Source of the DNA: Fibrobacter sp. UBA7003
GTDB lineage: Bacteria; Fibrobacterota; Fibrobacteria; Fibrobacterales; Fibrobacteraceae
NCBI RefSeq assembly: GCF_002449765.1
Contig: NZ_DJXN01000008.1
DNA: 64,000 nt
Strand: one strand, 5' to 3'
The notes beneath the pieces are model-generated. The model saw only the letters and a program-made list of their open reading frames with translations, made no database searches and had not been told where the DNA came from. Positions 9,680-45,806 of this stretch are shown here, piece after piece. Made by a program: the position numbers and the translations under genes. The stretch's first letter is position 1. Each line of letters starts with the position of its first letter.

Positions 9680-10609
9680 ATGAGGAATTTGCGGTCCATA
9701 TTGATGCCGCTGGCGATTGTTCTCGGGATTCTGCTCCCGCAGGCGCACGTGCTTTCGCCTATGATGCCCTTCCTTATCGGCTCGATGATGTTCCTGACGT
9801 TTGTCACGAAGATCCCGCCGCAGACTCACGGCTACACGTTCAAGATCGAGGCCCGCGCGTTTGTCGCAAGCCTTGTGCTGATTGCCGCCCTGTGGGGTAT
9901 CGTGGAACTGTTCGGGCTCCCGCGCGAGGTGCTGCTGGGCGGTGCCATCATCGCTCTCTGCCCGCCTGCGAATGCCGCCCCCACGATGGCCAAGATGCTC
10001 GGCGGATCGGCTTCGCTCGCGCTCAAGATTTTTTTGAGCGGGAACTTGCTCGCGTGCTTTTCGATCCCCGTCATTTTCGGGTGCCTTACCGGCGCCGATG
10101 CGAGCCTCTCCGAAATCGCGATGAAGATTTTCAATACCATCCAGCCCATCATCAGCATACCGCTCGCGTTTGCGCTGGGCCTGCGCGCGTTCTACCCGGA
10201 GCTTGCCGACCGCGCCGCGAAATTCCAGAAGTACACGATGTTCATCTGGACGTTCTCGGTGTTCGTCATCATTTCGAAGGCGAGTTTCGATATCCGCGAG
10301 ATGGGGTTCACCGACTTGTGGAACAGCGGCAAGCTCCCGATGATGGCGGGGGTCTCGCTGGTGCTCTGCATTTTGCTGTTCTGGCTCGGCTGGTTCTGTG
10401 AACGCAAGCGCCGCCCCATCGAGGGGTCGCAGAGCATGGGGCAGAAGAACACGACGCTCGTCATCTGGGTATCTACCTTGTTCGCAGGCCCGGTGGTGGC
10501 GCTCGCCCCGACCTGTTACGTTATCTGGCAGAACCTGGTGCTCACCTGGATGAGCCGCGAAAAGACCCGCGAACGGATGCTCCGCGGCCAGGAAAAGAAA
10601 AATCCCTAG
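9680..10609 (+). CDS. polytopic membrane transporter, possibly bile acid:Na+ symporter (BASS/SBF)-like
   Basis: 309 aa with about 9-10 hydrophobic helices. The family call is a weak pattern impression only. Confidence 0.4.
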   Translation: MRNLRSILMPLAIVLGILLPQAHVLSPMMPFLIGSMMFLTFVTKIPPQTHGYTFKIEARAFVASLVLIAALWGIVELFGLPREVLLGGAIIALCPPANAAPTMAKMLGGSASLALKIFLSGNLLACFSIPVIFGCLTGADASLSEIAMKIFNTIQPIISIPLAFALGLRAFYPELADRAAKFQKYTMFIWTFSVFVIISKASFDIREMGFTDLWNSGKLPMMAGVSLVLCILLFWLGWFCERKRRPIEGSQSMGQKNTTLVIWVSTLFAGPVVALAPTCYVIWQNLVLTWMSREKTRERMLRGQEKKNP

Positions 10610-10787: not shown

Positions 10788-11657
10788 ATGAATGCGATTG
10801 TAGAATACACTGATTATCGCAAGTTCATTCGTGACTACTACGAGGAACGTAAGCGGAGTTCGGCATTTACCTGGCGAGATTTTGCCCGGGATGTCGGTTT
10901 TTCGTCGGCGGTGTACCTGAAGTATGTCAGCGAGGGGAAAAAGAACCTGAGCGTGTCGGCTGCGGGTTCGGTCGCGCGCGCCATGGGGCTTGTCGGTTTC
11001 GAGGCCGAATATTTTGTGCTCATGGTCTCGTATGCGCACGCGAAAAACGACAAGGCGAAGCGTGCGGCGTTCGAACAGCGGTGCGCGCTCGCGATGGCGC
11101 ACAAGGTGCGCGTTCTGGGCAACGAGGAATTCGACTATTTCAAGTCGTGGAAAAACCCGGTGATCCGTGAACTCGCATCGCACATGCCCGGCGCGAAGCC
11201 GCTCGATATCGCACGTGCCTGCAAGCAGAAGATTTCTGCGGCGGAGGTTGCGGAGACGCTCGATTTTTTGGTGAAGGCGAAACTCCTGAAGAAGGACGGG
11301 AGCGGTAACTACCAGCAGACAGACAAGGCCATTTCCATGGGGAAGGTGGACGCGGTTCCGGTGGCGGCTCGCGAGATGCAAAGGCAAATGGGGGAGTTTG
11401 CGGTTAGTGCATTGGATTTGCCGCTATCGGAACGCGACATGTCGGGGCTTACCATGGGGATAACGAGCCGTGCCTACGAGCGCATAAAGAACGAGCTTGC
11501 GGAATGTCGCAAGCGCATCATGGCCATTGTCGTGGAAGACGACGAGACGGAGCGGGTGTATCGCCTGAACATGCAGCTGTTCCCGGTGAGCGAAAACATC
11601 AAGGACAAGGACTATTTGAAAAGGGGCTGGACGGATGATGAAAATAAAACTGTTTAA
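10788..11657 (+). CDS. TIGR02147-type Fibrobacter paralogous family protein, predicted DNA-binding
   Basis: MNAIVEYTDYRKFIRDYY ... FTWRDFARDVGFSSAVYLKYVSEGKKNLS has a Cro/C1-like HTH pattern. A second wHTH-like segment is ISAAEVAETLDFLVKAKLLKK. It is a paralogue of 46022..46879. Start chosen by alignment with that paralogue. Confidence 0.7.
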   Translation: MNAIVEYTDYRKFIRDYYEERKRSSAFTWRDFARDVGFSSAVYLKYVSEGKKNLSVSAAGSVARAMGLVGFEAEYFVLMVSYAHAKNDKAKRAAFEQRCALAMAHKVRVLGNEEFDYFKSWKNPVIRELASHMPGAKPLDIARACKQKISAAEVAETLDFLVKAKLLKKDGSGNYQQTDKAISMGKVDAVPVAAREMQRQMGEFAVSALDLPLSERDMSGLTMGITSRAYERIKNELAECRKRIMAIVVEDDETERVYRLNMQLFPVSENIKDKDYLKRGWTDDENKTV

Positions 11658-34948: not shown

Positions 34949-35032
34949 TCCCGACGAACGCACGGAATTTGCTGATAACCTACGCTCATTTTCAAGTGCG
35001 TTAATATATCTTCATGGATATGGGGGTTAGGT

Positions 35033-35755
35033 ATGTTCTCGCCGAAACACAATTTGCGGATTGTTCTAGCATGCGTGTGCATGCTTGTTTTTCCGGCATG
35101 GGCGGGTTCCTCGAATTCGAACAGTGATGATAAGCCTTCTGTGCTGGATGTGATTTTTGGTATTGCCGAATGGGCGACTTCGTGCAGAGACGACGATTAT
35201 GATTGTAAAAAGCGCCAAGGTGAATATCACAAGCGCGAAAATGATGAAAATGCGCGCCGAGCCAAGGAAAATCAGAAAAAATGGCGCGAGAAGAATCGAA
35301 ATTACAAGACGGGCTACTTGGGAATTGCGCTGACCATGCCTTTCTTTGCTGAAGAAAAAGATGTGGCGGGAGGTGCGGAACTTGTTTGGGCTTTTGTTTC
35401 CCGGTTTGGTGAACTTTTTATGTCGTTTGGTGGCGGCACTAATTTATCGATGGCATTTGTCGATGCAAACGTCTTTTACAGGCCGCCAATCGACATGAAC
35501 GGTATTTGGAAAATTGCGCCCGAAGTCGGTATTGGCGTCACGTCTTATGAGCCGTTCGATAGCGACGATTATGTTGAACCCTTGTACCATTATTCAGTGG
35601 GCGTGCGCTACGAGCATACCCTGCAAAGCCGCAAGAACATCATCGAGGACGAGGACGTGCTTATCAACGGCGTGAGCGCCGGTTGCGCCGTGTGGATGAA
35701 CTACGCCGATTTTGCCGGCGTCAAGTGCGACATCCGATTTGGATTGTATTTGTAA
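35033..35755 (+). CDS. secreted hypothetical protein
   Basis: 240 aa with a signal peptide (ACVCMLVFPAWAG), a charged K/R/E-rich linker and a beta-rich C-terminal half. No family recognised. Confidence 0.45.
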   Translation: MFSPKHNLRIVLACVCMLVFPAWAGSSNSNSDDKPSVLDVIFGIAEWATSCRDDDYDCKKRQGEYHKRENDENARRAKENQKKWREKNRNYKTGYLGIALTMPFFAEEKDVAGGAELVWAFVSRFGELFMSFGGGTNLSMAFVDANVFYRPPIDMNGIWKIAPEVGIGVTSYEPFDSDDYVEPLYHYSVGVRYEHTLQSRKNIIEDEDVLINGVSAGCAVWMNYADFAGVKCDIRFGLYL

Positions 35756-35835
35756 GTCCGTTTTATTTGATGAAGTCCACGAATTGTTGGATGGGATGAA
35801 TCCGGGTTTTGCCTAGATATTCTATTTTATAGATA

Positions 35836-36477
35836 ATGGCCCGCGGAATTTTATGGATTGTGTTGGTGGTGTGCGCCCTGCTGCTTGCGGGGTGCTCAAG
35901 TCATCCGCCTTCTGCGGCGCAGTTCATGAATGTGAAAGAAGACGAAGGTGATATTGTTGTTGGAGGGACCGCTAAAATCGGAGACCTCCATCGAGGCAAG
36001 AATCGGTTGCAGAGTGACTATTCTGATGTAGAACTCTTTGGTGATTTAGATGTTTCTCTTTTGTTTAGATACAGCCATTTGGTTCTGGGACTTTATTCGG
36101 AAAATCTTTATTCGATAAGCGGCCTTGCTGGTTCCCGATGGGAATATGTAGGAATTCAAGGCTGGTTCGGTATGTCTGTTTTAGTGGTTGACAAGCAAGT
36201 CCCTATTTACGGCGGATTGATGTTGATCGAAGAATATCCTGTAAGTAAAAATCTTAGAGTGGGGCTAAGTGAACACATTTCGCGTAATGCCCACGGTGTA
36301 GATAAGAATGAAGCTGGTTTAGGTTCTCCGGCTACGGGTTTTTATCATGAGTTTGGTACCGGAATTTATTTGGCGTATAAGGCCTTTTCGGTAGAGTTGC
36401 GATATGGACGGGAAATTGATGAACCGAGAAATCGCTTTTATTTTATGATAAATTATGGCTTTGATTCTGATGGCTAG
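35836..36477 (+). CDS. hypothetical lipoprotein (AT-rich gene)
   Basis: 213 aa with lipobox LLAGC. The local GC is clearly lower than in flanking core genes. No family recognised. Confidence 0.45.
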   Translation: MARGILWIVLVVCALLLAGCSSHPPSAAQFMNVKEDEGDIVVGGTAKIGDLHRGKNRLQSDYSDVELFGDLDVSLLFRYSHLVLGLYSENLYSISGLAGSRWEYVGIQGWFGMSVLVVDKQVPIYGGLMLIEEYPVSKNLRVGLSEHISRNAHGVDKNEAGLGSPATGFYHEFGTGIYLAYKAFSVELRYGREIDEPRNRFYFMINYGFDSDG

Positions 36478-36513
36478 TTTTTTAAAAAGGGCGGTCCCCC
36501 CCCGTCTATGCTT

Positions 36514-37155
36514 TTACGAAAAGCAGTTCTTGACGCATGCTTCGAGGATTGCGGCGAATGCGAGCAGGGTTATGCCGTACTTGGGGCGGAGCCTCTTGAT
36601 TATGGGGAAGAACGCGTTGATGATGTACAAAGTAGATGCGACCAGGTAGCCTAACGCGATGATGTATGCAGGCTGGCCCAGGCCGGAATAGAACAGGCCG
36701 TCGTATTCCCCGCGGGCGAAAGTTTCTAGGGAAAAGAAGAAAAGGAACGATGCGATGCTTAGGGCAATCTTGAAGTTCCTGAGCCAGAAATCTTCGGGAG
36801 GGAGGTTCGCTGACGGATCCTTGTCTTTCCAGATGTGCTTATTGAAAAAGGGGATGCATGTCGAATACCAGATGAAAATCCCGAATGCGGGGAGGAACTT
36901 GGCAAATTCGAAAACGTGCCAAAGTTGAAGGCTCTTGATTACGGAGGGGTCGCTGGCGATGGAGAACAGTAAACCGTCTTCAAGGCGGCCGCGTGGTCCG
37001 CGAAGTAAAACGAGAACGTAAATTGCGAATACGATTCCGAAGAGTATCAGGAACTGCTTAAATCCCTTTTTGTCGGGCAGGGGCTGCGGCTGCTTGAGGA
37101 TTTTTTCCTCGTAAATTTTGAGATCTTTATCGGTAAAATGTGTCATATTTTGCAA
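36514..37155 (-). CDS. hypothetical polytopic membrane protein
   Basis: 213 aa with 5-6 hydrophobic segments. No family recognised. Confidence 0.5.
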   Translation of the reverse strand: MQNMTHFTDKDLKIYEEKILKQPQPLPDKKGFKQFLILFGIVFAIYVLVLLRGPRGRLEDGLLFSIASDPSVIKSLQLWHVFEFAKFLPAFGIFIWYSTCIPFFNKHIWKDKDPSANLPPEDFWLRNFKIALSIASFLFFFSLETFARGEYDGLFYSGLGQPAYIIALGYLVASTLYIINAFFPIIKRLRPKYGITLLAFAAILEACVKNCFS

Positions 37156-37240
37156 TAAATGTAACTTAAAAGGGGAAGATTTGCTTTTTTCGGGGCAATT
37201 TTTGTATTTTAATGTCCGTAAAAATTTTAGAGGTACACTA

Positions 37241-38224
37241 ATGGATATTCAGGAACTTTCGGAAAAGGTGCGCCAGCAGAGTGCTTTTTGCATGAATTTG
37301 CTGCGTGAAGTGGAAGGGACGGTGATTGGCCAGAAGGCTCTGGTCGAAAGCATTCTGACGGGTATTTTGGCGGACGGTCACGTGCTGCTGGAAGGCTTGC
37401 CGGGCCTTGCCAAGACGACTGCGGTGAAGGCTTTTGCCGATGCTGTGTCGCTGGACTTCAAGCGCATCCAGTTCACTCCCGACCTGTTGCCGGCCGACTT
37501 GCTGGGTACCACGATTTACAACGCGAAGGAAGCGAAGTTCGAAACCCGTAAGGGCCCGCTCTTCACGAACCTCGTGCTCGCCGATGAAATTAACCGTGCT
37601 CCGTCGAAGGTGCAGAGCGCCCTCCTCGAAGCCATGCAGGAACGCCACATCACGATTGGCGACGAGACGTTCAAGCTGGACGAGCCGTTCCTGGTGCTTG
37701 CCACGCAGAACCCCATCGAGCAGGAAGGTACGTATCCGCTGCCCGAAGCCCAGGTGGACCGTTTCCTGTTGAAGGTGAAGGTCAGCTACCCGAACAAGGC
37801 CGACGAAATGAAGATTCTCGACGCCGTTGCCGGTGCGGGGCTGCGCCAGCCGCAGGCTGTCGCCACGAAGGAAGATATCCTTGCCGCCCGCCAGCTCGTG
37901 AAGCAGGTGTACGTGGACGAACGCGTGCGCGAATACATCGTGAACCTGGTGCTTGCGACCCGCGATCCGGGCAGCATCAAGCGCAGCGACCTGGTGGGCT
38001 TTGTGGAAGTGGGCGCCTCGCCGCGTGCATCCATCGGCCTTGCCCAGGCTTCGAAGGCTCATGCGTTCATCCAGGGCCGCGCCTACGTGACGCCGGAAGA
38101 TGTGAAGGCCGTCGCGATGGAAGTGCTCCGCCACCGCATTATCCTCAGTTACGAGGCCGAAGCGGAAGAAGTCTCCGCCGAGACTGTGGTGCAGAAGATT
38201 CTGGATTCTGTTGAGGTTCCGTAG
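37241..38224 (+). CDS. moxR: MoxR-family AAA+ ATPase
   Basis: Starts at MDIQELSEKV. GQKALVESILTGILADGHVLLEGLPGLAKT, LADEINRA, LATQNP and a RASI...A C-terminal block. 327 aa. Confidence 0.9.
   Translation: MDIQELSEKVRQQSAFCMNLLREVEGTVIGQKALVESILTGILADGHVLLEGLPGLAKTTAVKAFADAVSLDFKRIQFTPDLLPADLLGTTIYNAKEAKFETRKGPLFTNLVLADEINRAPSKVQSALLEAMQERHITIGDETFKLDEPFLVLATQNPIEQEGTYPLPEAQVDRFLLKVKVSYPNKADEMKILDAVAGAGLRQPQAVATKEDILAARQLVKQVYVDERVREYIVNLVLATRDPGSIKRSDLVGFVEVGASPRASIGLAQASKAHAFIQGRAYVTPEDVKAVAMEVLRHRIILSYEAEAEEVSAETVVQKILDSVEVP
38106..38224 (+). repeat. copy 1 of a 119-bp diverged direct repeat (functional 3' end of moxR)
   Basis: Aligns without gaps to 40589-40707. The first 38 nt are identical, with about 16 mismatches overall. 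Nearly all mismatches are synonymous, and the encoded peptides differ at one residue (V/F). Confidence 0.85.
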
Positions 38225-38278
38225 TCGCGGCCATCTCTAACCGACATTGTTATCTCGCACTCGTTGCGGGATCTCCAC

Positions 38279-38914
38279 TTACATAAGCCGGGCCTTGAGC
38301 TCGGCTTTCACTTTTTTGAGGTCGCCGCTGGTGAGAATGGGAATGAGACTGTTGATTTCGTCGATGGGCTTGTCCCACCACTTGAACTTGAGCAGAAGTG
38401 CGGTGAGTTCGTCGTCGAATCGCTTGCGGATGAGTTTGGCAGGGTTCCCTGCCACGATGGTGTAGGGCTCCACGTCGCTTGCTACGACGGAGTTTGCCCC
38501 GATGATGGTACCGTCGCCGATGTGAACGCCTGGGAGAATCGTCACATTCTGCCCGATCCACACGTCGTTCCCGATGACGGTATCGCCTTTGAACGGCATA
38601 TCTTCGCGGGCGGGCGGTGCCATGTCCCAGCCCTGCAGCGTGTAGAACGGGAAGGTGGAAACCGCATTCATCTGGTGGTTCGCCCCGTTCATGACGAATT
38701 CCACGCCGGAGGCAATTTGGCAAAATTTGCCGATGATGAGTTTGTCTCCAATGAAGTTGTAATGGTGCGTCACGTGGCTCTCGAAATCCGAATCGGCAAT
38801 GTAGGTGAAATCGCCCACGATTATATTCGCTCTCTTGAGCGTCGGCTTCACGTAGATTTCCTTGTCGTAGCCCGCGATGGGGTGGATTGTATTCGGGTCG
38901 GGTCTTGTTATCAT
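38279..38914 (-). CDS. vat: Vat-family streptogramin A O-acetyltransferase (xenobiotic hexapeptide acyltransferase)
   Basis: From MITRPDPNTIHPI. DKLIIGKFCQIASGVEFVMNGANHQMNAVSTFPF, KGDTVIGNDVWIGQNVTILPGVHIGDG and KWWDKPIDEI are collinear with VatD blocks (GKFCSIGPG ... NGANHRMDGSTYPF ... KGDTIIGNDVWIG ... KWWNWPID). Confidence 0.85.
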   Translation of the reverse strand: MITRPDPNTIHPIAGYDKEIYVKPTLKRANIIVGDFTYIADSDFESHVTHHYNFIGDKLIIGKFCQIASGVEFVMNGANHQMNAVSTFPFYTLQGWDMAPPAREDMPFKGDTVIGNDVWIGQNVTILPGVHIGDGTIIGANSVVASDVEPYTIVAGNPAKLIRKRFDDELTALLLKFKWWDKPIDEINSLIPILTSGDLKKVKAELKARLM

Positions 38915-38980
38915 AGCGGGAAACCTTTTGCTAAACGTCACTTTTCTTTTTTGCGGTTTTTCAAGCACGTCTTTTGCTTT

Positions 38981-39262
38981 TTATGGGCGTGTTTCGTCAT
39001 GGGCAGATGAAATTGTAATAATGTCATCGAAACAGCAATCCTCTTCGTTGACTTCGCATGCGCAGCCACACATGCCAGATAATTTTGGGATGATGAATTC
39101 TCCCTTGCTCCACCGGGTGTATAGGGAATCGTCTATCGTCTGGATTTTCTTTTGCAGGGAAGGATCCGACGATATGTCGCATTTGAATCTGCCAAAATGC
39201 AGTGCAGGCTCGGCATTTATGAAGCATGCCAGAAAGAGGATTGTTTTCAGCACCGATTTCAT
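38981..39262 (-). CDS. small secreted Cys-rich hypothetical protein
   Basis: 93 aa with a signal peptide (ILFLACFINAEP) and 7 Cys, including the cluster GMCGCACEVNEEDCC. Lies between the 292-aa gene and vat on the same strand. Confidence 0.4.
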   Translation of the reverse strand: MKSVLKTILFLACFINAEPALHFGRFKCDISSDPSLQKKIQTIDDSLYTRWSKGEFIIPKLSGMCGCACEVNEEDCCFDDIITISSAHDETRP

Positions 39263-39280
39263 CTCAAGAAGAATAATAGT

Positions 39281-40096
39281 TTAATTCTGTTGGCGGTGGG
39301 CGTCCTGTTCGAAAATCGTCTTGATGTATGCCTGCACCTGCTTGACGGAGAGAGGGGTGTTGCCGCTTTCGAAGGTGGCGATGAAGTTCTTGCCGAGGAT
39401 GTAGCCGCTGGCGGCGTATCGGGAGATTTTCTGCACGGCGTTTTCGGTGTAGTCGGGGTCGCCCATCAGGCCGAAGTGCTCCCAGATGATTTCTTCGCGG
39501 GAGCTGGTGCGCAGGCAGGTGAAATCGGGGTAGAGCGTACCCCAGCCTTTGACGCTGGTAGGGTATTCGTAGCGGAAGGGGATGCCTGCGCGATTGAGCG
39601 CGTCTGCGATGATGACTTCGGATTTTGAGCGGACGCGCACGCCCGTGCTCGTGAAGAATTCGGGTGCGTTGATTTCGAAGGGCTTGCCGGTGTAGGGGAG
39701 GTGCTGCCATGCAGCGATGAAATCCTCGTCGGGCTCGCGCACGGGCGTCACAAGGGGGCGGCGGCCGGGGTGTAGCCCCGTGAACGCGGTGTCGATTTCT
39801 TCGGGATGGTAATTCTCCGTCAGGTTGTTGAGTGCGATGATTTGCCTGCCGATGATGCCTGCGACAGCCGCGTTGTAATCGCGTTGCGCGATTGCCGCCG
39901 CCCTGCGTCGTTCCTTGCGGGGGAGGTATTTTCCGTTAGAGTTGCTGCCCTTGTCTACGAGATAGTATTGCGACCGGTCATGGTTGGTTATGACTCGCAA
40001 TCTTCCTGTGGGTTGCTTTCCCTTGGGGAGTTTAGCCTTCAGTGCGATCAGTTGCTGAATCCGCTCGTTGGCGATTTGAATGAGTTGGTCTGCCAT
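39281..40096 (-). CDS. hypothetical protein with a C-terminal PD-(D/E)xK-like (restriction-endonuclease fold) motif arrangement
   Basis: ATG at 40096 with a purine-rich stretch upstream (alternative TTG at 40159). VRSKSEVIIADALNRAGIPFRYEYP ... LYPDFTC ... IIWEHFG resembles the S-x-x-E / PDF / h-E-x-x-G layout of TnsA, Vsr and DUF559-type nucleases. Confidence 0.5.
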   Translation of the reverse strand: MADQLIQIANERIQQLIALKAKLPKGKQPTGRLRVITNHDRSQYYLVDKGSNSNGKYLPRKERRRAAAIAQRDYNAAVAGIIGRQIIALNNLTENYHPEEIDTAFTGLHPGRRPLVTPVREPDEDFIAAWQHLPYTGKPFEINAPEFFTSTGVRVRSKSEVIIADALNRAGIPFRYEYPTSVKGWGTLYPDFTCLRTSSREEIIWEHFGLMGDPDYTENAVQKISRYAASGYILGKNFIATFESGNTPLSVKQVQAYIKTIFEQDAHRQQN

Positions 40097-40269
40097 TTCC
40101 GTTCCCTTTTTCTGTGAAACAAAAAAGCGCTGATACGCCGTTTTAACGGACGATATCAACGCTTATGTGTCCCTAATATACAAAGTGTGTGGCAAAAAAA
40201 CAAGTTGATGCTTTAGGCGGCAGTTGGATAGCATTTTTTTTGACTTTTGAACGTCTGTTTTGCGGGGGC

Positions 40270-40508
40270 TTACATACCAAAGACGTAAATAGTGGTGGTT
40301 GGTATGTAAAAAAGGTTGCGAAAGAGCGAAAAGTGTCCCAAATGGGGTCGCGGATGACGAAATTAGGGCGATTTTTGCTTAGTTTGTCTGTGTTTTGGCT
40401 ATTTTTTACATACTAAAACATTGCTTCGGGAAAATAGGTATGTAAGGTCTGTGAATGCTGGTTGCGGATTGCATACTAATTGAACTTTTTTGGTGTTTTA
40501 GTATGTAA
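40270..40508. repeat. three 40-bp units, each with 11-bp inverted arms (consensus TTACATAC[CT]AA) around an 18-bp non-conserved spacer
   Basis: Unit 1 is 40270-40280 / 40299-40309, unit 2 is 40406-40416 / 40435-40445, and unit 3 is 40469-40479 / 40498-40508. The spacer is exactly 18 nt in all three. Confidence 0.8.
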
Positions 40509-40588
40509 ATAGATGCGTTTTCCCCGCTCCTAGACGACTTCTCTGAGGTTCGCGGGCGTTATTTTGCAACCTATAGGCGGTTTTCCGC

Positions 40589-40707
40589 AGGCCGTCGCGA
40601 TGGAAGTGCTCCGCCACCGCATTATCTTAAGCTACGAGGCCGAAGCGGAAGAAGTCTCCGCCGAAACCTTCGTGCAGAAGATTCTCGACAGCGTCGAAGT
40701 GCCGTAA
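40589..40707 (+). pseudogene. orphan 3' fragment of moxR (copy 2 of the 119-bp repeat)
   Basis: Encodes AVAMEVLRHRIILSYEAEAEEVSAETFVQKILDSVEVP-stop with no upstream moxR body. Homology starts abruptly at 40589. Confidence 0.8.
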
Positions 40708-40771
40708 ACTTCGCGATCATCTTTGGCGCATTAAACCTGCGCAGGAATCGCACAGAAATCATATGAGAAAG

Positions 40772-40810
40772 AAGAACGCCCCGACAAGAGGCGTTCTTTT
40801 ACTATTTTAA
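40772..40810 (+). terminator. rho-independent terminator following the orphan moxR 3' end
   Basis: Stem AAGAACGCC (40772-40780), a 9-nt loop, stem GGCGTTCTT (40790-40798), then a T-rich tail. Confidence 0.6.
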
Positions 40811-40815
40811 AAATT

Positions 40816-43560
40816 ATGAAATCCTGGCAACTCCTATTTATGCTGAATAGCGCCATTCTTGCTTTGGTACTTTTGGGGGCGTGCTCTAATTCTCAAATGG
40901 ATGAGGGATTGGACGACGAAAGCCGGTCTGCAGAACGCGATGTAGCGGTTCCCGAAGTTGAACTGGATTCACTGCGGCCAGGAATGATGCGAATTAAGTC
41001 GAACGGTGCCTCGGTTTTGCTGGGTGACGACCGAATGCGGGTGAAACTGGATTACGATTACTCGCTCGGAATTCACGAGGTGACGTGTGGGGAATTCGCT
41101 CAAATTTCTGAAAAGGAAACGTGGTATTTTTATTTGGACTGTACGCAAGACGACTTGCCTGTGACTAATGTGTCTTATTTCGATGCGGTCCTTTTTGCGA
41201 ACGCTTATGGTAGAGTGCATGGTTACGATTCGGTTTATGTCTATCACCGTGCGGTCTTTAACTCGAAGGGGCACTGCGTTAATCTCGAGGGACTGAATGT
41301 TCGGACGGATGTAGATGGCTTTCGTTTGCCGACCGAAGCGGAATGGGTGATGGCGGCATCGTTGTCGTGGGATCCTGAAAGATACGGCTGGACTTCCGCT
41401 AATTCGAATTACGAACTCCATGCTCCTTGCGCGTTCCCGGATTCGATGGGCTTCTGCGACTTGGCGGGTAACGCTCTCGAACTGACAAATGATTGGCTTG
41501 GTAATCTCGGCGACTCCGTTGTAAAAAACTTTGTTGGTCCCCCGACGGGAAACGCCTTGTTCGAGAAGGTGGTCAAGGGCGGAACGGCGTATGGGCTTGG
41601 TGTTGAGATGAATTGGAATAATCGGGTCGACGTCTATCCTGTGACGGCCTCGACGATTTCTGTTTACATGGGTTTTCGTTTAGCATTTGGAAAGATTCCT
41701 GATGCTGTCTGGATGGATGGGCGTGGTGATGTCGCGACGGAGCTGATAAAAATGAAAGCATTCTCATTGGACATGCGCGAAAAAATCGGGACTGTGCATG
41801 CGAAGCTCGCTTTTCGGAACGATATGACGGGTAACCTGGTTTATGTGGATTTTGGGGGTGGTGCGCCGGGTGCGGTGGAAATTCTCGATAGTGTTCCTGT
41901 ATTCCATCCTGAAATTTCACCGGATGGAAAGAAAGTTGCGTTCTGCACGGGTGTTGAAGGTGTTGATGCGCCTTCGGCTGTTTATGTGAGGAATTTGGAT
42001 GTAGCTGGTAGCGGGCTTGTTAAGCTTGAAGTAGAGAATGCGGCAATTCCGCGATGGAACGTGGATTCGAATGGGGATACCTCTATTGTATATGTAGATA
42101 ATACCGGGGACAATACGGACGATGCGAATTTTCTTGCTGCAGCGACATGGCTGGTGCCTTTCTCTGACGGACGTTTCGGTGTGCCAAGAAAACTGATGGA
42201 TGGTGCTTACCATGGCGGTTTGTCGCCAGACGGAAGTCGTGCTGTTTCAGGTGCTCGACGGCTGCGTGCGCATGTGGATGGAACAGACGAAATTTGGTAT
42301 GACGGTGAACAGGCCTGCAATGCTTCACTTTCGAAGGATGGCTCGAACCAAACGCTTTTCTTGGATTTTGGTGGCGATGCCGGCAGAATGTTTGCACACG
42401 AAAAATATGGAGTTCACGAACGTTTACTTGTTGTCGATAGTACGGGGTCGCTTGTTCGAGCTATCCCTGCACCGGAAGGTTATTCCTTCGACCATACAGA
42501 ATGGGTGGATCGTGAAAACTGGGCTGTCGCATCGCTCGCGGATTCGGATGGAAAACATTCAAAAATAGTGTTGGTGAGCATCGCAGATTCTAGCGTGGTG
42601 GCTTTGGTCGAGGGGGAAGAACTTTGGCATCCGAATTTATGGGTGATGCCCCGGGTTGCGTCGGGAACGACATATCTTGACTTGGACAGTGCTGGCGTGT
42701 ACTGGGATCCCATTTTACAAAGTGGTTCAAAATCTGCTGCGTTGAAGATGCGTATGTTCTGGGATACGTTCGACTCCCTGGAGGTAATTGCCGTCGGAAG
42801 TTCGCGTACGGAGAGGGGCTTTGATCCTTTGAAGATTTCGAGGCCTGCCTTTAATTTTGGCTTTATAGGCGAAGACTTGTGGGGCGAACTTTATTTGTTA
42901 GAAAATTATGTTGTTCCTCATGCTCGTAATCTTAAGTATTTGATTGTCGAAATTTCGCCCGACTTGATGACCAATGATCCTTTTGCGAGAATGCGTGAGG
43001 TGTTTGAACAGGCTCCAGGGTATTTCTACGATAGAAACCATGGATTCTGGAACGATAGCGTACCCGAAGCCTTTGTTCGCCTAGTTGATATCAATGTCGT
43101 CTATACGTTGAATGACTCGACGCAATATGTCAATACGCGTGGCTTGAATAGGATGGAATCGGGCGGTTGGGGTGAAGATCCTGAGATAAAGCAGGGTGCT
43201 ATATTGTTCGATAGCAAACGTAGACATTATGCGAACGTGGTCGATAGCTTGGTTGCTTTTGTCGACCGCATGCAAGGTAAGGGCTTTGTGATAATTGGTC
43301 TCATTTATCCGCAGTCTCCAAAATATGCGGACACGGAATGTTTCGGTCGACACGGAACGCCCAGGGATTTGGCGGAGGAAACTGTGGCGTATCTTGACTC
43401 TCTTGCCGGGGGGTATCCATACTTTGTCTTGATGGATGAGAACAAGTTTGGTGCGCACGATTATCCGGACTCGATGGCGAACGATTATGACCATCTCAGC
43501 GCAGTCGGGGCGGAACGCTTGTCTGTTCGGCTGGATTCCTTGATAAAGACGTTGGAATAA
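40816..43560 (+). CDS. large lipoprotein with an N-terminal SUMF1/FGE-like domain, a TolB-like beta-propeller segment and a C-terminal domain (resembles Fibrobacter family TIGR02171)
   Basis: 914 aa with lipobox LLGAC. FRLPTEAEWVMAAS, GNALELTNDW and VVKGG are FGE-sulfatase-like. HPEISPDGKKVAFC is TolB/WD40-like. The family name comes from memory of TIGRFAM descriptions. Confidence 0.6.
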   Translation: MKSWQLLFMLNSAILALVLLGACSNSQMDEGLDDESRSAERDVAVPEVELDSLRPGMMRIKSNGASVLLGDDRMRVKLDYDYSLGIHEVTCGEFAQISEKETWYFYLDCTQDDLPVTNVSYFDAVLFANAYGRVHGYDSVYVYHRAVFNSKGHCVNLEGLNVRTDVDGFRLPTEAEWVMAASLSWDPERYGWTSANSNYELHAPCAFPDSMGFCDLAGNALELTNDWLGNLGDSVVKNFVGPPTGNALFEKVVKGGTAYGLGVEMNWNNRVDVYPVTASTISVYMGFRLAFGKIPDAVWMDGRGDVATELIKMKAFSLDMREKIGTVHAKLAFRNDMTGNLVYVDFGGGAPGAVEILDSVPVFHPEISPDGKKVAFCTGVEGVDAPSAVYVRNLDVAGSGLVKLEVENAAIPRWNVDSNGDTSIVYVDNTGDNTDDANFLAAATWLVPFSDGRFGVPRKLMDGAYHGGLSPDGSRAVSGARRLRAHVDGTDEIWYDGEQACNASLSKDGSNQTLFLDFGGDAGRMFAHEKYGVHERLLVVDSTGSLVRAIPAPEGYSFDHTEWVDRENWAVASLADSDGKHSKIVLVSIADSSVVALVEGEELWHPNLWVMPRVASGTTYLDLDSAGVYWDPILQSGSKSAALKMRMFWDTFDSLEVIAVGSSRTERGFDPLKISRPAFNFGFIGEDLWGELYLLENYVVPHARNLKYLIVEISPDLMTNDPFARMREVFEQAPGYFYDRNHGFWNDSVPEAFVRLVDINVVYTLNDSTQYVNTRGLNRMESGGWGEDPEIKQGAILFDSKRRHYANVVDSLVAFVDRMQGKGFVIIGLIYPQSPKYADTECFGRHGTPRDLAEETVAYLDSLAGGYPYFVLMDENKFGAHDYPDSMANDYDHLSAVGAERLSVRLDSLIKTLE

Positions 43561-43588
43561 ATCTCGATGTTGGTAACCTAAAGTCAAT

Positions 43589-43640: not shown

Positions 43641-45806
43641 TTATCGCCTTACGGCCTTGAATATCCCGAGGGTCCTGTTGCCTTGCGAGACTTTGACGAG
43701 GTAGGCGCCTTGACGCAGGGTGATGTGGAGTTCGTTCCCCTGCACTGCGCGAAATTCCGCGATGCGGTGGCCTTGCATGTCGAAGATGCTGATATCGTGC
43801 GCGCCGCCGTCGATGCCCTTGAGAAGGAGCGTGCTACCGTCGATACGGCCGCTAATTGCGTTGCGCGGTGTCAAGGATTCGACGGCGGTGGTGCCCTCGG
43901 TTCCTTCCGCGCTGGAAGATGTGCCTTCTGCTGCGCTGGAAGACTGTGGCCCGACGATTTCTGCGCTTGAGGAGTTGACGTCGGCGAAGGATTCTTCGCG
44001 TAGTCCTCCGACAATCTCGATATCCGGTTTCGGGGGCATGTCCATGCCGTAGCCGAGGAAGTAGTCGAGCATGCTTGCCTGCACATAGCCCTTCGCAGTA
44101 GTCCCCATGCGGTAGCAGGGGTTCTGCATCAGCGAGTAGAAGCGGTGTTCGCTTGCGATGTCTGTCGTGAATATCACGAGTTCCTTCGTGTCGTAGTTCA
44201 CGAGGATTGATTCTTCGCGCCAGTCACCGAAGATATCCCCGTGGAACATTCCCACGCCCCTCTCGCTCCCGCTGCTGCCGTAGATTTTCCATGTGGTTGC
44301 CACACGGCCAACCGACTTGTTCTTGTAATCCCACTTTTCGATTTTTCCGTCATTGTAGCTTTCTGCCGCGAGATCCCCGTCCCACCAGTAGCGGAGTACG
44401 GGGTACAGGTAGTTGCTGGCGATAAGTTTGTTGGTGACGCCGTTGTAGGTTCCCTGGAAACTCCAGACTTCGAATCCGTCGTAATCGGGGTCGATGTCAC
44501 CGATGTTCCCGCGTGCGACGTCGCACTGGCCTGCGCAGGACTCGTCGCCGTAGTGGGTCCAGATGACCTTGCCGGTGGAGGCGTTGTAGTAGTATTCGAG
44601 CAGGTTTTTCGGATGGTCCTGCTGTATTCCGTAGCCCATCATCACCTTGTCGCCCTTGTTGAATGCCCCTACGTACCAGCGGTCACCGTGAACGACTTCG
44701 GGAATCTGGTAACGCAGGCTTCCGTCGCCGTTCAGTGCGTAGCCCATGTGCAACACTTCGTCCTTGCCGTCGTAATCCACATCGGCGATTCTAATCTGGT
44801 GCGCTTCGGCTCCGCCGCCGCTTTTGCGTGCATCGTGCTTCCACTGCTGCGTGAGCTTTCCCTTCTCGACGCGGTAGGCGACGGTCATGCTGTTGAAGCT
44901 CTTGTCCGCATTCCTGTTCTTTATCCACGTGACGACGCTCGGGGTTTTTCCGTCGAGATAGGCGATTTCCATCATGCAGGCCATCGGACCGATCGAGATG
45001 TAGTCATCGGGGACAGGAGCGTATGTTTTCAGTGCGCCGGTACGCCCGTCCAGGACGGCTATGGCCTGGGCGTTTGTTCCACTGAGCGTGAATTTTTTGC
45101 CATCACCGAAGGTGACACCGTCGGCTATTCGCACGATAACGTCGGCAAAGCCGTCGGAATCGATATCATAGACGGTTGCCCCGTCCCACATGCCCACGTC
45201 GAGCGTTGATGCGCCCGGTGTAATGTTGTTCTTGTTCTCGCTGTTCGGGCCAAGATCAAGAGTCCACAGGTACTTTCCCTGGCTCGAGTATGCCTGCAGT
45301 TGCTGGTGGTCGAGTGCGGGCTGGTCGAGCAGGTAGTCGTATGCGCCATCCCCGTCAAAGTCGCCCACCCACACGAAATGGACGGTGGATGTGATATTTG
45401 GGACGGGAACGGTGACATACGCTCCGATTCCCTTGTTCGCGGGCATGGTGTAGCTGCCGTTTGTTCCGAGTTCTACGCCGTTCAGTACCTTCTTGACGGA
45501 GTAGGTGTTGGCCTTCGAAAAGTCGGCGGTACCGTCGGTGAAATTTGTACCCTTGGTAAGTACGGTCTGGTTCAACTTGACGGTTTTTCCATCGGTTGTT
45601 CGGTAAACGTTGAATCCGAGGTCGCTTTCGTCGGTGGCGAGGCTTCGCCAGCTGACAAGTGCGCTGGAATTGTTCTGCCGTACGGCGACAACGCCCCTGT
45701 CCAGGTATTCAAATTGCCTTTTGACGAGAGCCTCGCCTGCGGCGAGAGATTCGCTTGCAATGCCTGCCCCGGCAATGCATGTGGCGAGAAGGGTCTTGCG
45801 TAACAT
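43641..45806 (-). CDS. rhamnogalacturonan lyase, polysaccharide lyase family 11, with a T9SS-type C-terminal domain
   Basis: 721 aa with a signal peptide. QFEYLDRGVVAV ... SWRSL ... GFNVYR, VGDFDGDGAYDY and LGDWREE-like blocks are collinear with B. subtilis YesW/YesX. C-terminus: ISIFDMQGHRIAEF ... GAYLVKVSQG. Confidence 0.85.
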   Translation of the reverse strand: MLRKTLLATCIAGAGIASESLAAGEALVKRQFEYLDRGVVAVRQNNSSALVSWRSLATDESDLGFNVYRTTDGKTVKLNQTVLTKGTNFTDGTADFSKANTYSVKKVLNGVELGTNGSYTMPANKGIGAYVTVPVPNITSTVHFVWVGDFDGDGAYDYLLDQPALDHQQLQAYSSQGKYLWTLDLGPNSENKNNITPGASTLDVGMWDGATVYDIDSDGFADVIVRIADGVTFGDGKKFTLSGTNAQAIAVLDGRTGALKTYAPVPDDYISIGPMACMMEIAYLDGKTPSVVTWIKNRNADKSFNSMTVAYRVEKGKLTQQWKHDARKSGGGAEAHQIRIADVDYDGKDEVLHMGYALNGDGSLRYQIPEVVHGDRWYVGAFNKGDKVMMGYGIQQDHPKNLLEYYYNASTGKVIWTHYGDESCAGQCDVARGNIGDIDPDYDGFEVWSFQGTYNGVTNKLIASNYLYPVLRYWWDGDLAAESYNDGKIEKWDYKNKSVGRVATTWKIYGSSGSERGVGMFHGDIFGDWREESILVNYDTKELVIFTTDIASEHRFYSLMQNPCYRMGTTAKGYVQASMLDYFLGYGMDMPPKPDIEIVGGLREESFADVNSSSAEIVGPQSSSAAEGTSSSAEGTEGTTAVESLTPRNAISGRIDGSTLLLKGIDGGAHDISIFDMQGHRIAEFRAVQGNELHITLRQGAYLVKVSQGNRTLGIFKAVRR

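Follow-up and report, generated by a model that had tools for sequence, protein, structure and literature searches.

A directly repeated moxR 3' end brackets an insert with a putative nuclease gene and a paired-site array in Fibrobacter

Campbell-type islets at the 3' ends of tRNA and tmRNA genes are bracketed by repeats of the target 3' end; the copy that is brought in restores the gene, the resident end is left as an orphan, and relatives show the empty site. Homology-facilitated illegitimate recombination, known from work on Acinetobacter and pneumococcus, joins DNA by homology at one end and illegitimately at the other. Here we compare with these systems a locus in a 64,000-nucleotide (nt) stretch of Fibrobacter sp. 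UBA7003 (contig NZ_DJXN01000008.1), referred to as the window, in which the end of moxR is directly repeated on either side of an insert carrying a putative nuclease gene (here called nuc), an array of inverted half-sites and a Vat-like acetyltransferase gene. The explanation that we favor, by a modest measure, is that duplicative, Campbell-type recombination in a hypervariable interval left the repeat as its scar, and that the resulting arrangement then spread by homologous exchange. The features on which this comparison rests are listed below.

37241..38224, plus strand: moxR, intact, encoding a MoxR-type AAA+ ATPase (Pfam AAA_3, 2.3e-65; AAA_lid_2, 5e-24)
38106..38224, plus strand: direct repeat copy 1, the functional moxR end (38106-38143 identical to copy 2)
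38279..38914, minus strand: gene for a Vat-like xenobiotic (hexapeptide-repeat) acetyltransferase of 211 amino acids (aa) (NF000311, 276.3 bits)
38981..39262, minus strand: gene for a truncated secreted Cys-rich protein, 93 aa (153-154 aa in relatives; full-length 153-aa homologue in contig L090)
39281..40096, minus strand: nuc, whose 271-aa product has a new N-terminal domain and a predicted C-terminal PD-(D/E)xK-fold nuclease domain
40270-40309, 40406-40445 and 40469-40508: array of three convergent inverted-repeat units with half-site TTACATACTAA
40516..40588: spacer of about 70 nt from the array to the orphan, ending at the apparently illegitimate junction 40588/40589
40589..40707, plus strand: direct repeat copy 2, an orphan moxR 3' end of a 'B-type' allele, followed by 37 nt of resident post-stop DNA to 40744

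Alignment of 38106-38224 with 40589-40707 was gapless and contained 16 mismatches in 119 positions. The first 38 nt (38106-38143 and 40589-40626) were identical, the copies differed in all regions after position 38 and in none before it, and no similarity between them was found upstream of 40589. Ten of the codon differences were synonymous, one exchanged valine for phenylalanine (GTG/TTC), and the stop codons were TAG and TAA. The T of the orphan's phenylalanine codon was seen in no other aligned moxR tail, and the exchange looks like a private mutation of that copy. An earlier reading of this stretch (the original prediction) had described the same gapless repeat, with an identical 38-nt start, about 16 mismatches and a single amino acid change, and had traced the copies to two different moxR alleles. 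These points were all borne out: the last 81 nt of copy 1 (tail A) were matched at up to 78 of 81 positions by loci L003 and L019, and the corresponding part of the orphan (tail B) at up to 77 of 81 by L010 and L012. Both tails are natural moxR alleles within the variation of the clade. The extent of the repeat needed revision. The figure of 119 nt stands for the orphan, but comparison with relatives takes the resident block about 37 nt beyond the stop codon, to 40744, and in contigs L090-L092 the full repeat is 156 nt long with 85-92% identity.

No longer gene contains the orphan; the only open reading frame (ORF) covering it is a 47-aa one with a TTG start. At 40588/40589 the partners share just 2 nt (AG), and the join is illegitimate in appearance, as in one of the two routes originally proposed. 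The final 81 nt of the intact moxR are the A-type tail, which arrived with the inserted block; the MoxR protein of the window is 100% identical to that of many species-level Fibrobacter genomes. Since 38106-38143 is identical in both copies, the crossover should lie inside that interval, and the insert would span roughly 38144-40588.

In order to determine which copy is resident, we compared the locus with uninterrupted relatives. A MoxR scan of species-representative genomes gave 72 Fibrobacteraceae loci (L001-L072), and a second copy of the moxR end was present in 0/72 of them. The segment 40589-40892 was colinear with loci in which moxR is followed directly by a terminator and a lipoprotein gene (L002, L008, L015, L025 and L052). 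In L090-L092 the orphan and its flank were colinear with the empty locus L003, in which moxR is followed by a gene that we call Y, and from 43580 onward the window matched the same Y flank as in L003. Because the orphan and the DNA downstream of it are colinear with uninterrupted loci, the orphan is the original resident moxR end. The earlier inference that DNA had entered at this site is upheld. Two features make up the resident flank.

40772..40810, plus strand: resident terminator hairpin, which follows moxR in uninterrupted moxR-lipoprotein loci
40816..43560, plus strand: gene for a TIGR02171-family Fibrobacter lipoprotein (NCBIfam TIGR02171, 1216.6 bits)

A terminator had been called at 40772-40810, and its hairpin (40772-40798) was found to be present and conserved in the moxR-lipoprotein loci. 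Membership of the lipoprotein in TIGR02171 assigns the window to Fibrobacter. The lipoprotein gene is itself a variable insert relative to the moxR-Y genomes, and homology of the window to L003 and L090 returns at 43580, past this gene. TIGR02171 lipoprotein alleles are very divergent; the window protein is only 52-68% identical to the copies in the fetched loci, and its flanks are 93% identical to relatives.

The nearest homologues of nuc (96-98% identical) were found on a Logan contig (L089) and on metagenome contigs L090-L094. The junction between the spacer and position -119 of moxR, including the same 70-nt spacer, was identical in L089 and in L090-L092, the latter coming from three separate assemblies; the L089 contig ends 29 nt into the repeat. 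The gene order in L090-L092 is moxR, terminator, lipoprotein, a 129-aa gene, a 428-aa gene, a 153-aa Cys-rich gene, nuc, array, spacer, moxR fragment (-119 to +37) and Y. In the window it is moxR, vat, truncated Cys-rich gene, nuc, array, spacer, moxR fragment, terminator, lipoprotein and Y. No vat gene was found in the cargo at the same junction in L089-L092. The junction is thus older than the arrangement seen in the window, as the same spacer/moxR(-119) join carries differing cargo and order in L089-L092, and the occurrence of one junction with different interiors indicates that it was formed once and then carried around.

These contigs also bear on whether two coexisting strains were joined through their shared moxR tail during assembly, as might be suspected where many of the related sequences are metagenome-assembled and the L089 contig breaks within the repeat. 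The partners of the junction have only 2 nt in common, so that shared k-mers could not have created it, and it recurs in five independent assemblies. The 38-nt identical block, moreover, is shorter than the k-mers usually used for a final assembly graph, and we consider an artefact of this kind very remote. The two copies in L090 are identical in the middle and different at both ends, a pattern such as gene conversion or a crossover at another position would give. In the window the crossover could have taken place anywhere in repeat positions 1-38, and in L090 anywhere in 25-96.

The insert of the window is a mosaic. The segment 37093-38995 was 92.6% identical to L026, in which the order is moxR, vat, Cys-rich gene, nuc and lipoprotein and in which nuc is only 65% identical to that of the window. 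The segment 39023-40744 had its best matches in L089-L092 (95-96%). The switch between them coincides with a gap of about 140 nt inside the Cys-rich gene at 38995/38996 (L026 positions 9772-9911 are absent), which marks a second recombination scar, lying within the insert. The small Cys-rich secreted gene named in the original prediction is therefore present, but as a truncated copy of 93 instead of 153-154 aa. Within the Cys-rich gene, an L026-like moxR-vat segment is thus joined to an L089-L092-like segment of nuc, array, spacer and orphan. After repeat copy 1, the window continues as in L026 and L019, and L090 continues as in L002 and L008. Since the DNA after copy 1 is what normally follows moxR elsewhere, the inserted blocks are ordinary chromosome of other strains and have no dedicated arms; the idea of a dedicated element is not sustained.

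The mosaic structure is also relevant to a purely local origin, in which a tandem duplication from moxR position -119 to past the array was followed by deletions and by conversion from imported alleles, with no foreign block. Such a duplication is topologically equivalent to the Campbell-type event and would give exactly one new junction, between segment end and segment start; the L090 copies are partly homogenised, and the orders in the window and L090 are circular permutations of similar gene sets. The repeat copies, however, show 13% divergence and each resembles a different natural allele, the interior consists of segments nearest to different genomes, and the window has a single nuc copy. 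Several extra deletions or replacements would be needed, and we judge this origin to be improbable.

The presence of direct target repeats around the insert excludes a double crossover with a linear fragment and calls for crossover with a circle, a template switch or a tandem duplication. In the Campbell-type scheme that we prefer, a piece of chromosome that began 119 nt short of the moxR stop and reached about 70 nt past the array would have been joined head to tail, either by circularisation or by template switching in break repair, which would create 40588/40589 as the sole illegitimate junction. A single crossover between the incoming and the resident moxR tail would then place the block ahead of the resident one. 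For the window, the 38-nt identical stretch would be where this crossover occurred, with the incoming tail completing moxR and the resident tail becoming the orphan at 40589-40744. With moxR homology at both block ends, homologous recombination could subsequently move the block between strains and reshuffle its interior. Like homology-facilitated illegitimate recombination, this scheme has one homologous end (moxR) and one illegitimate end with 2-nt microhomology. Unlike the classical events, which delete recipient DNA, it duplicates 119-156 nt and needs a circular or template-switch intermediate. As regards gene exchange in Fibrobacter, inserts bracketed by diverged ends of neighboring genes recur at this locus, although no obvious mobile-element machinery is present there.

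Several points weigh against this scheme. The circular or template-switch intermediate has to be supposed. The spacer (40516-40588) had no match in any fetched locus save L089-L092. A single origin with homologous spread predicts the same junction as would repeated site-specific integration, and the crossover intervals of the window and L090 overlap at repeat positions 25-38, which a fixed recombinase core would fit too. A mere 80 nt separates the junction from the array of nuc, and many genomes have nuc close to the 3' end of moxR, which leaves room for a causal role of the nuclease.

The last three of these points also speak for a site-specific element, in which the moxR 3' end would be the att site, a circular form would carry about 156 nt of moxR tail as attP, nuc would act as or recruit the recombinase, and integration would restore moxR. 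Direct repeats resembling attL and attR bracket the insert, the orphan is the resident tail, and relatives have the empty site, as in Campbell-type islets. The outer boundary at -119 is shared by two different arrangements, nuc is the sole candidate enzyme and is frequently found downstream of moxR, and in loci L130 and L131 arrays flank nuc on both sides. There are also differences from known islets and points against such an element. No tyrosine, serine or DDE recombinase was detected in any ORF in 38225-40588, in agreement with the earlier statement that the insert has no recognisable recombinase, and there is no integrase. No element-specific arm lies beside the repeat core, the DNA next to copy 1 being the normal chromosomal continuation in other strains. 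The repeats are 85-92% identical mosaics in place of an exact core, and one junction carries different cargo. Furthermore, the orphan moxR tail is absent outside one nuc lineage (the window and L089-L092, 96-98% identical) among the 19 nuc loci of the 72 genomes and about 60 metagenomic ones. The presence of nuc and its array beside purA, together with half-site remnants in empty loci, suggests long residence, and no PD-(D/E)xK nuclease is known to carry out conservative site-specific recombination. Entry with the moxR end as att, one of the two routes originally envisaged, is accordingly a weaker reading than the homologous route, and we regard it as unlikely. A 70-nt repeat around the nuc block in L126 and L127 (5492-5561 and 9489-9558) was considered as a candidate att site and rejected, as it is a terminator-bearing segment shared with L029 and L045 and thus probably a common terminator.

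The interval downstream of moxR, to judge from the 72 genomes, behaves as a hypervariable hotspot. In the simplest genomes purA lies 190-500 nt downstream of moxR, and in L003 and L011 the convergent gene Y, a homologue of window 43641-45806, directly follows moxR; these two layouts are described for the F. succinogenes clade. Between moxR and purA or Y, strains vary, having vat, the TIGR02171 lipoprotein gene or nuc alone, or combinations of these, and genes for secreted proteins as well. nuc was present in 19/72 loci. Two nuc-free loci retain an outermost half-site just upstream of purA (TTTATACGCCCC in L021 and TTAACACGCCCC in L007). These half-sites look like remnants of a lost nuc-array module, and their retention indicates that loss of the module has occurred in addition to its replacement.

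Other partial gene copies were observed in the same interval. A copy of the vat 5' end, 68-69 nt long and 85-93% identical, directly follows the nuc stop codon in 12 loci (L001, L004, L010, L012, L019, L069, L104, L111, L114-L116 and L134). It is separated from the intact vat by an insert of 1.3-5 kb, a topology like that of the moxR duplication; in L001 the two vat 5' ends are at 9810-9878 and 11459-11527. Between nuc and moxR, L030 (2460-2539/3804-3883), L136 (573-652/1295-1374) and L144 (6703-6782/7406-7485) have an orphan nuc 3' end of 80-114 nt that is 91-95% identical. As the vat 5' and nuc 3' copies bracket other inserts, the same topology recurs in this interval. The region upstream of moxR (35000-37155 in the window) is likewise variable across L001-L072, with differing counts of paralogous genes for membrane or lipoprotein-like proteins of about 213 aa, which are homologues of window 35836-36477 and 36514-37155. 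MoxR is 96-100% identical across about 50 species-level genomes.

The original prediction regarded the insert as a Vat cassette of possible clinical interest. The Vat-like protein scored 276.3 bits against NF000311, the NCBIfam model of Vat streptogramin A O-acetyltransferases, below the equivalog cut-off of 300 bits, and allele-specific Vat models were all below their own cut-offs; the match to the Vat profile therefore stands, and assignment as a Vat equivalog does not. Pfam Hexapep matched at 8.5e-15 and VatA structures at an E value of 7e-63, and the MNGANH stretch with the histidine motif is kept in alignment to VatA (PDB 4myo), to which the protein is 49.5% identical. With members of the Vat/xenobiotic acetyltransferase family it shares the left-handed beta-helix hexapeptide fold, a full-length match to Vat profiles and to VatA and VatD structures, and the NGANH residues. 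It differs from them in falling short of the NCBIfam equivalog cut-off, in being only about 50% identical to VatA, and in being chromosomal and common at one locus. It is plausibly a xenobiotic acetyltransferase.

A vat-like gene occurs within 8 kb downstream of moxR in 14/72 species-level loci, in several arrangements; in L022 and L023 it is on the opposite strand, past the lipoprotein gene. In 13 of these 14 loci MoxR is 99-100% identical to that of the window, and the copy at the same position in L026 is 92% identical. This gene looks like a long-standing chromosomal resident of the locus. It was not recently imported from clinical lineages, and nothing ties it to clinical vat genes. Together with the vat-free cargo at the same junction in L089-L092, this also removes the grounds for describing the insert as a Vat cassette. 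A literature search on Fibrobacter vat, on PDC-S68 and on Fibrobacter recombination returned nothing relevant. In resistance surveillance, this sub-threshold Vat-like gene would need an assay before it is classed as an acquired clinical determinant.

The constant core of the block is nuc with its array, rather than vat, and the two form a widespread, undescribed module that is in no curated family. The nuc protein had no sequence or profile match in Pfam (E value up to 10), NCBIfam, PHROG or PDB. Its AlphaFold 2 model has a pLDDT (predicted local distance difference test) score of 89.2, and the N-terminal part consists of long helices plus a beta-hairpin at residues 32-47. Foldseek matched the C-terminal domain to the nuclease domains of Bax1, DrdV, MunI and Vsr (probability up to 0.99, E value 6e-3), and viral endonucleases in BFVD were also among the fold matches. 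The C terminus of the PADLOC candidate PDC-S68 matches nuc at 5e-24. Across 43 diverse members E160, D191, E206 and H207 are invariant and K223 is nearly so. These residues are putatively catalytic, and the predicted fold places nuc in the PD-(D/E)xK superfamily.

A word-index search gave 1,315 homologues of nuc; among those listed, all that were named by their source were 'hypothetical protein', and none had a Pfam domain. A profile search retrieved 8,153 clusters at 50% identity with an E value of 0.001 or below, and 3,051 at 1e-30 or below; almost all of the best 150 clusters were about 260-310 aa long and matched over nearly the whole profile. Named family members were from Fibrobacter and Treponema. 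Carriage by phages or plasmids was rejected, as no viral contigs carrying nuc were found and plasmids had only its C-terminal domain, fused to large ATPase or helicase genes. A 29%-identical homologue was found on a 4.2-kb gut contig with no array. No methyltransferase of the kind that a type II/IIS restriction-modification system would have nearby was detected among the scanned ORFs in 35000-43560, a scan that short and overlapping ORFs fell outside.

Six TTACATACTAA sites lie within 240 nt of the window, with partners 29 nt apart start to start, and the remainder of the 64 kb contains only six weak matches with 2 mismatches. Arrays of 11-bp half-sites in convergent pairs were present upstream of nearly every nuc homologue examined. 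The spacing of partners was 28-31 nt start to start in 256 pairs, with 2-7 pairs per array, and 423 of 445 half-sites were at most 800 nt upstream of the nuc start codon. Of the remaining 22, eighteen belonged to a further array that L130 and L131 each have downstream of nuc. In these two loci, which have the TTACGGACTA type, arrays with an 85-nt period lie on both sides of nuc (L130 4323-4547 and 6196-6536) as 327-nt direct repeats that are 85% identical. A circle with nuc and one array would be released if these repeats recombined with each other.

The half-site type follows the protein clade (TTACATACTAA, GTACCTATAAA, GGGGCATATAA, GGGGCGTATAA, TTACGGACTA or TGCATATAA), and nuc members that are 30-39% identical have other half-site types. 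The alignment columns that best track the type, and are conserved within it, are hairpin residues 36-38:

TTACATACTAA: I-T-N
GTACCTATAAA: D-R/K-C
GGGGCATATAA: L-K-H
GGGGCGTATAA: Q-P-H
TTACGGACTA: S-M-N

Five loci from other clusters of the nuc family, two of them named Treponema, were sampled, and four had 2-4 units of a private half-site with the same spacing, where about 0.1 was expected from shuffling. These loci are between unrelated housekeeping genes.

We asked whether the array acts as RNA or as duplex DNA. Deviations in the arms were one-sided in 98 cases, versus about four genuinely compensated ones, with no excess of compensatory changes over neighboring non-partner sites, and no Rfam match at an E value of 1 or below was obtained in 37000-41500. 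On these grounds, protein sites on duplex DNA are preferred to RNA hairpins. A strand bias test of G-T versus A-C mismatches in the repeat arms (311 versus 429) was uninformative. No half-sites were found at the left end of the insert, which led us to reject a transposon, and an integron was rejected because there is no integrase and the inverted repeats form a cluster upstream of nuc instead of bounding cassettes.

Two further features precede nuc.

40121..40162, minus strand: leader hairpin and T-run in the sense orientation of nuc, 30 nt upstream of the ATG (dG, free energy change, -18.9)
40175-40180, minus strand: TATATT box upstream of nuc

In four of five half-site types the nuc start codon is preceded, at a distance of 16-34 nt, by a strong leader hairpin with a T-run. 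The stems differ between types (GCGTTGATA... or GCTACG...), and the hairpin is absent in the GTACCTATAAA type. The hairpin suggests that expression is tightly controlled. The combination of a repeat array, a terminator-like hairpin and the gene of a potentially toxic nuclease resembles type III toxin-antitoxin systems (ToxIN). In contrast to ToxIN, the units are inverted half-sites with unconserved spacers and not tandem direct RNA units, compensatory changes are not in excess, the fold is unrelated to ToxN, and one half-site type lacks the hairpin. With no Rfam match in addition, a ToxIN-like system was rejected. Rep-iteron and RTP-Ter systems also have an array beside the gene and site sequences that co-vary with the protein lineage, but here the pairs are convergent instead of direct iterons, the protein has a predicted nuclease domain, and the gene is chromosomal and single copy, with no plasmid or phage context.

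There is also a likeness to two-domain, sequence-specific nucleases that cut between paired sites, such as FokI-type IIS enzymes and Vsr-like or PD-(D/E)xK homing endonucleases (I-Bth0305I, for example). Like these, nuc has an N-terminal part that may serve in recognition and a C-terminal PD-(D/E)xK domain, is a compact intergenic gene, and has convergent half-sites whose 28-31-nt spacing would suit a head-to-head dimer. It differs in that its cognate sites are an array of 2-7 pairs beside its own gene, in having no methyltransferase, intron or intein context, and in an N-terminal domain with no detectable relative. A free-standing homing endonuclease would cleave alleles without its gene and have no site in its own allele; the present module is found in varied intergenic sites, with cognate-looking sites beside its own gene. 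Most likely, a nuc dimer binds each convergent pair and places its two nuclease domains over the spacer of about 18 bp, the N-terminal beta-hairpin reading bases in half-sites upstream of its own gene. Two points weigh against this. DNA binding and cleavage by nuc are read from sequence patterns only, and the link between residues 36-38 and half-site type is confounded by shared ancestry.

Candidate purposes are a selfish homing-like module, a repressed defense or toxin-like nuclease with the array as operator or sink, and a local generator of breaks that makes the hotspot. We tentatively raise the possibility, which we consider less likely than not, that nuc and its array are a new compact module in which a dimeric nuclease with an evolvable hairpin (residues 36-38) binds or cuts its own paired sites, and in which the breaks or the complex drive allele replacement and cassette capture, giving rise to hotspots and to the moxR junction. 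As three hairpin residues are apparently paired with outer half-site bases, the specificity is testable and possibly re-targetable: changing residues 36-38 from I-T-N to L-K-H would be predicted to switch recognition from TTACATAC to GGGGCATA. Fibrobacter assemblies can be surveyed for crossovers within the 156-nt repeat with the pattern CCTATAGGCGGTTTTCCGCAGGCCGTCGC.

In L162 and L164 a nuc homologue is near an XPB-type helicase gene (ERCC3_RAD25_C) and a TP_0021-like gene, in different positions on each contig. Among PDB structures, the fold of nuc is matched best by Bax1, a nuclease that partners XPB in archaea, and this correspondence may be a coincidence.

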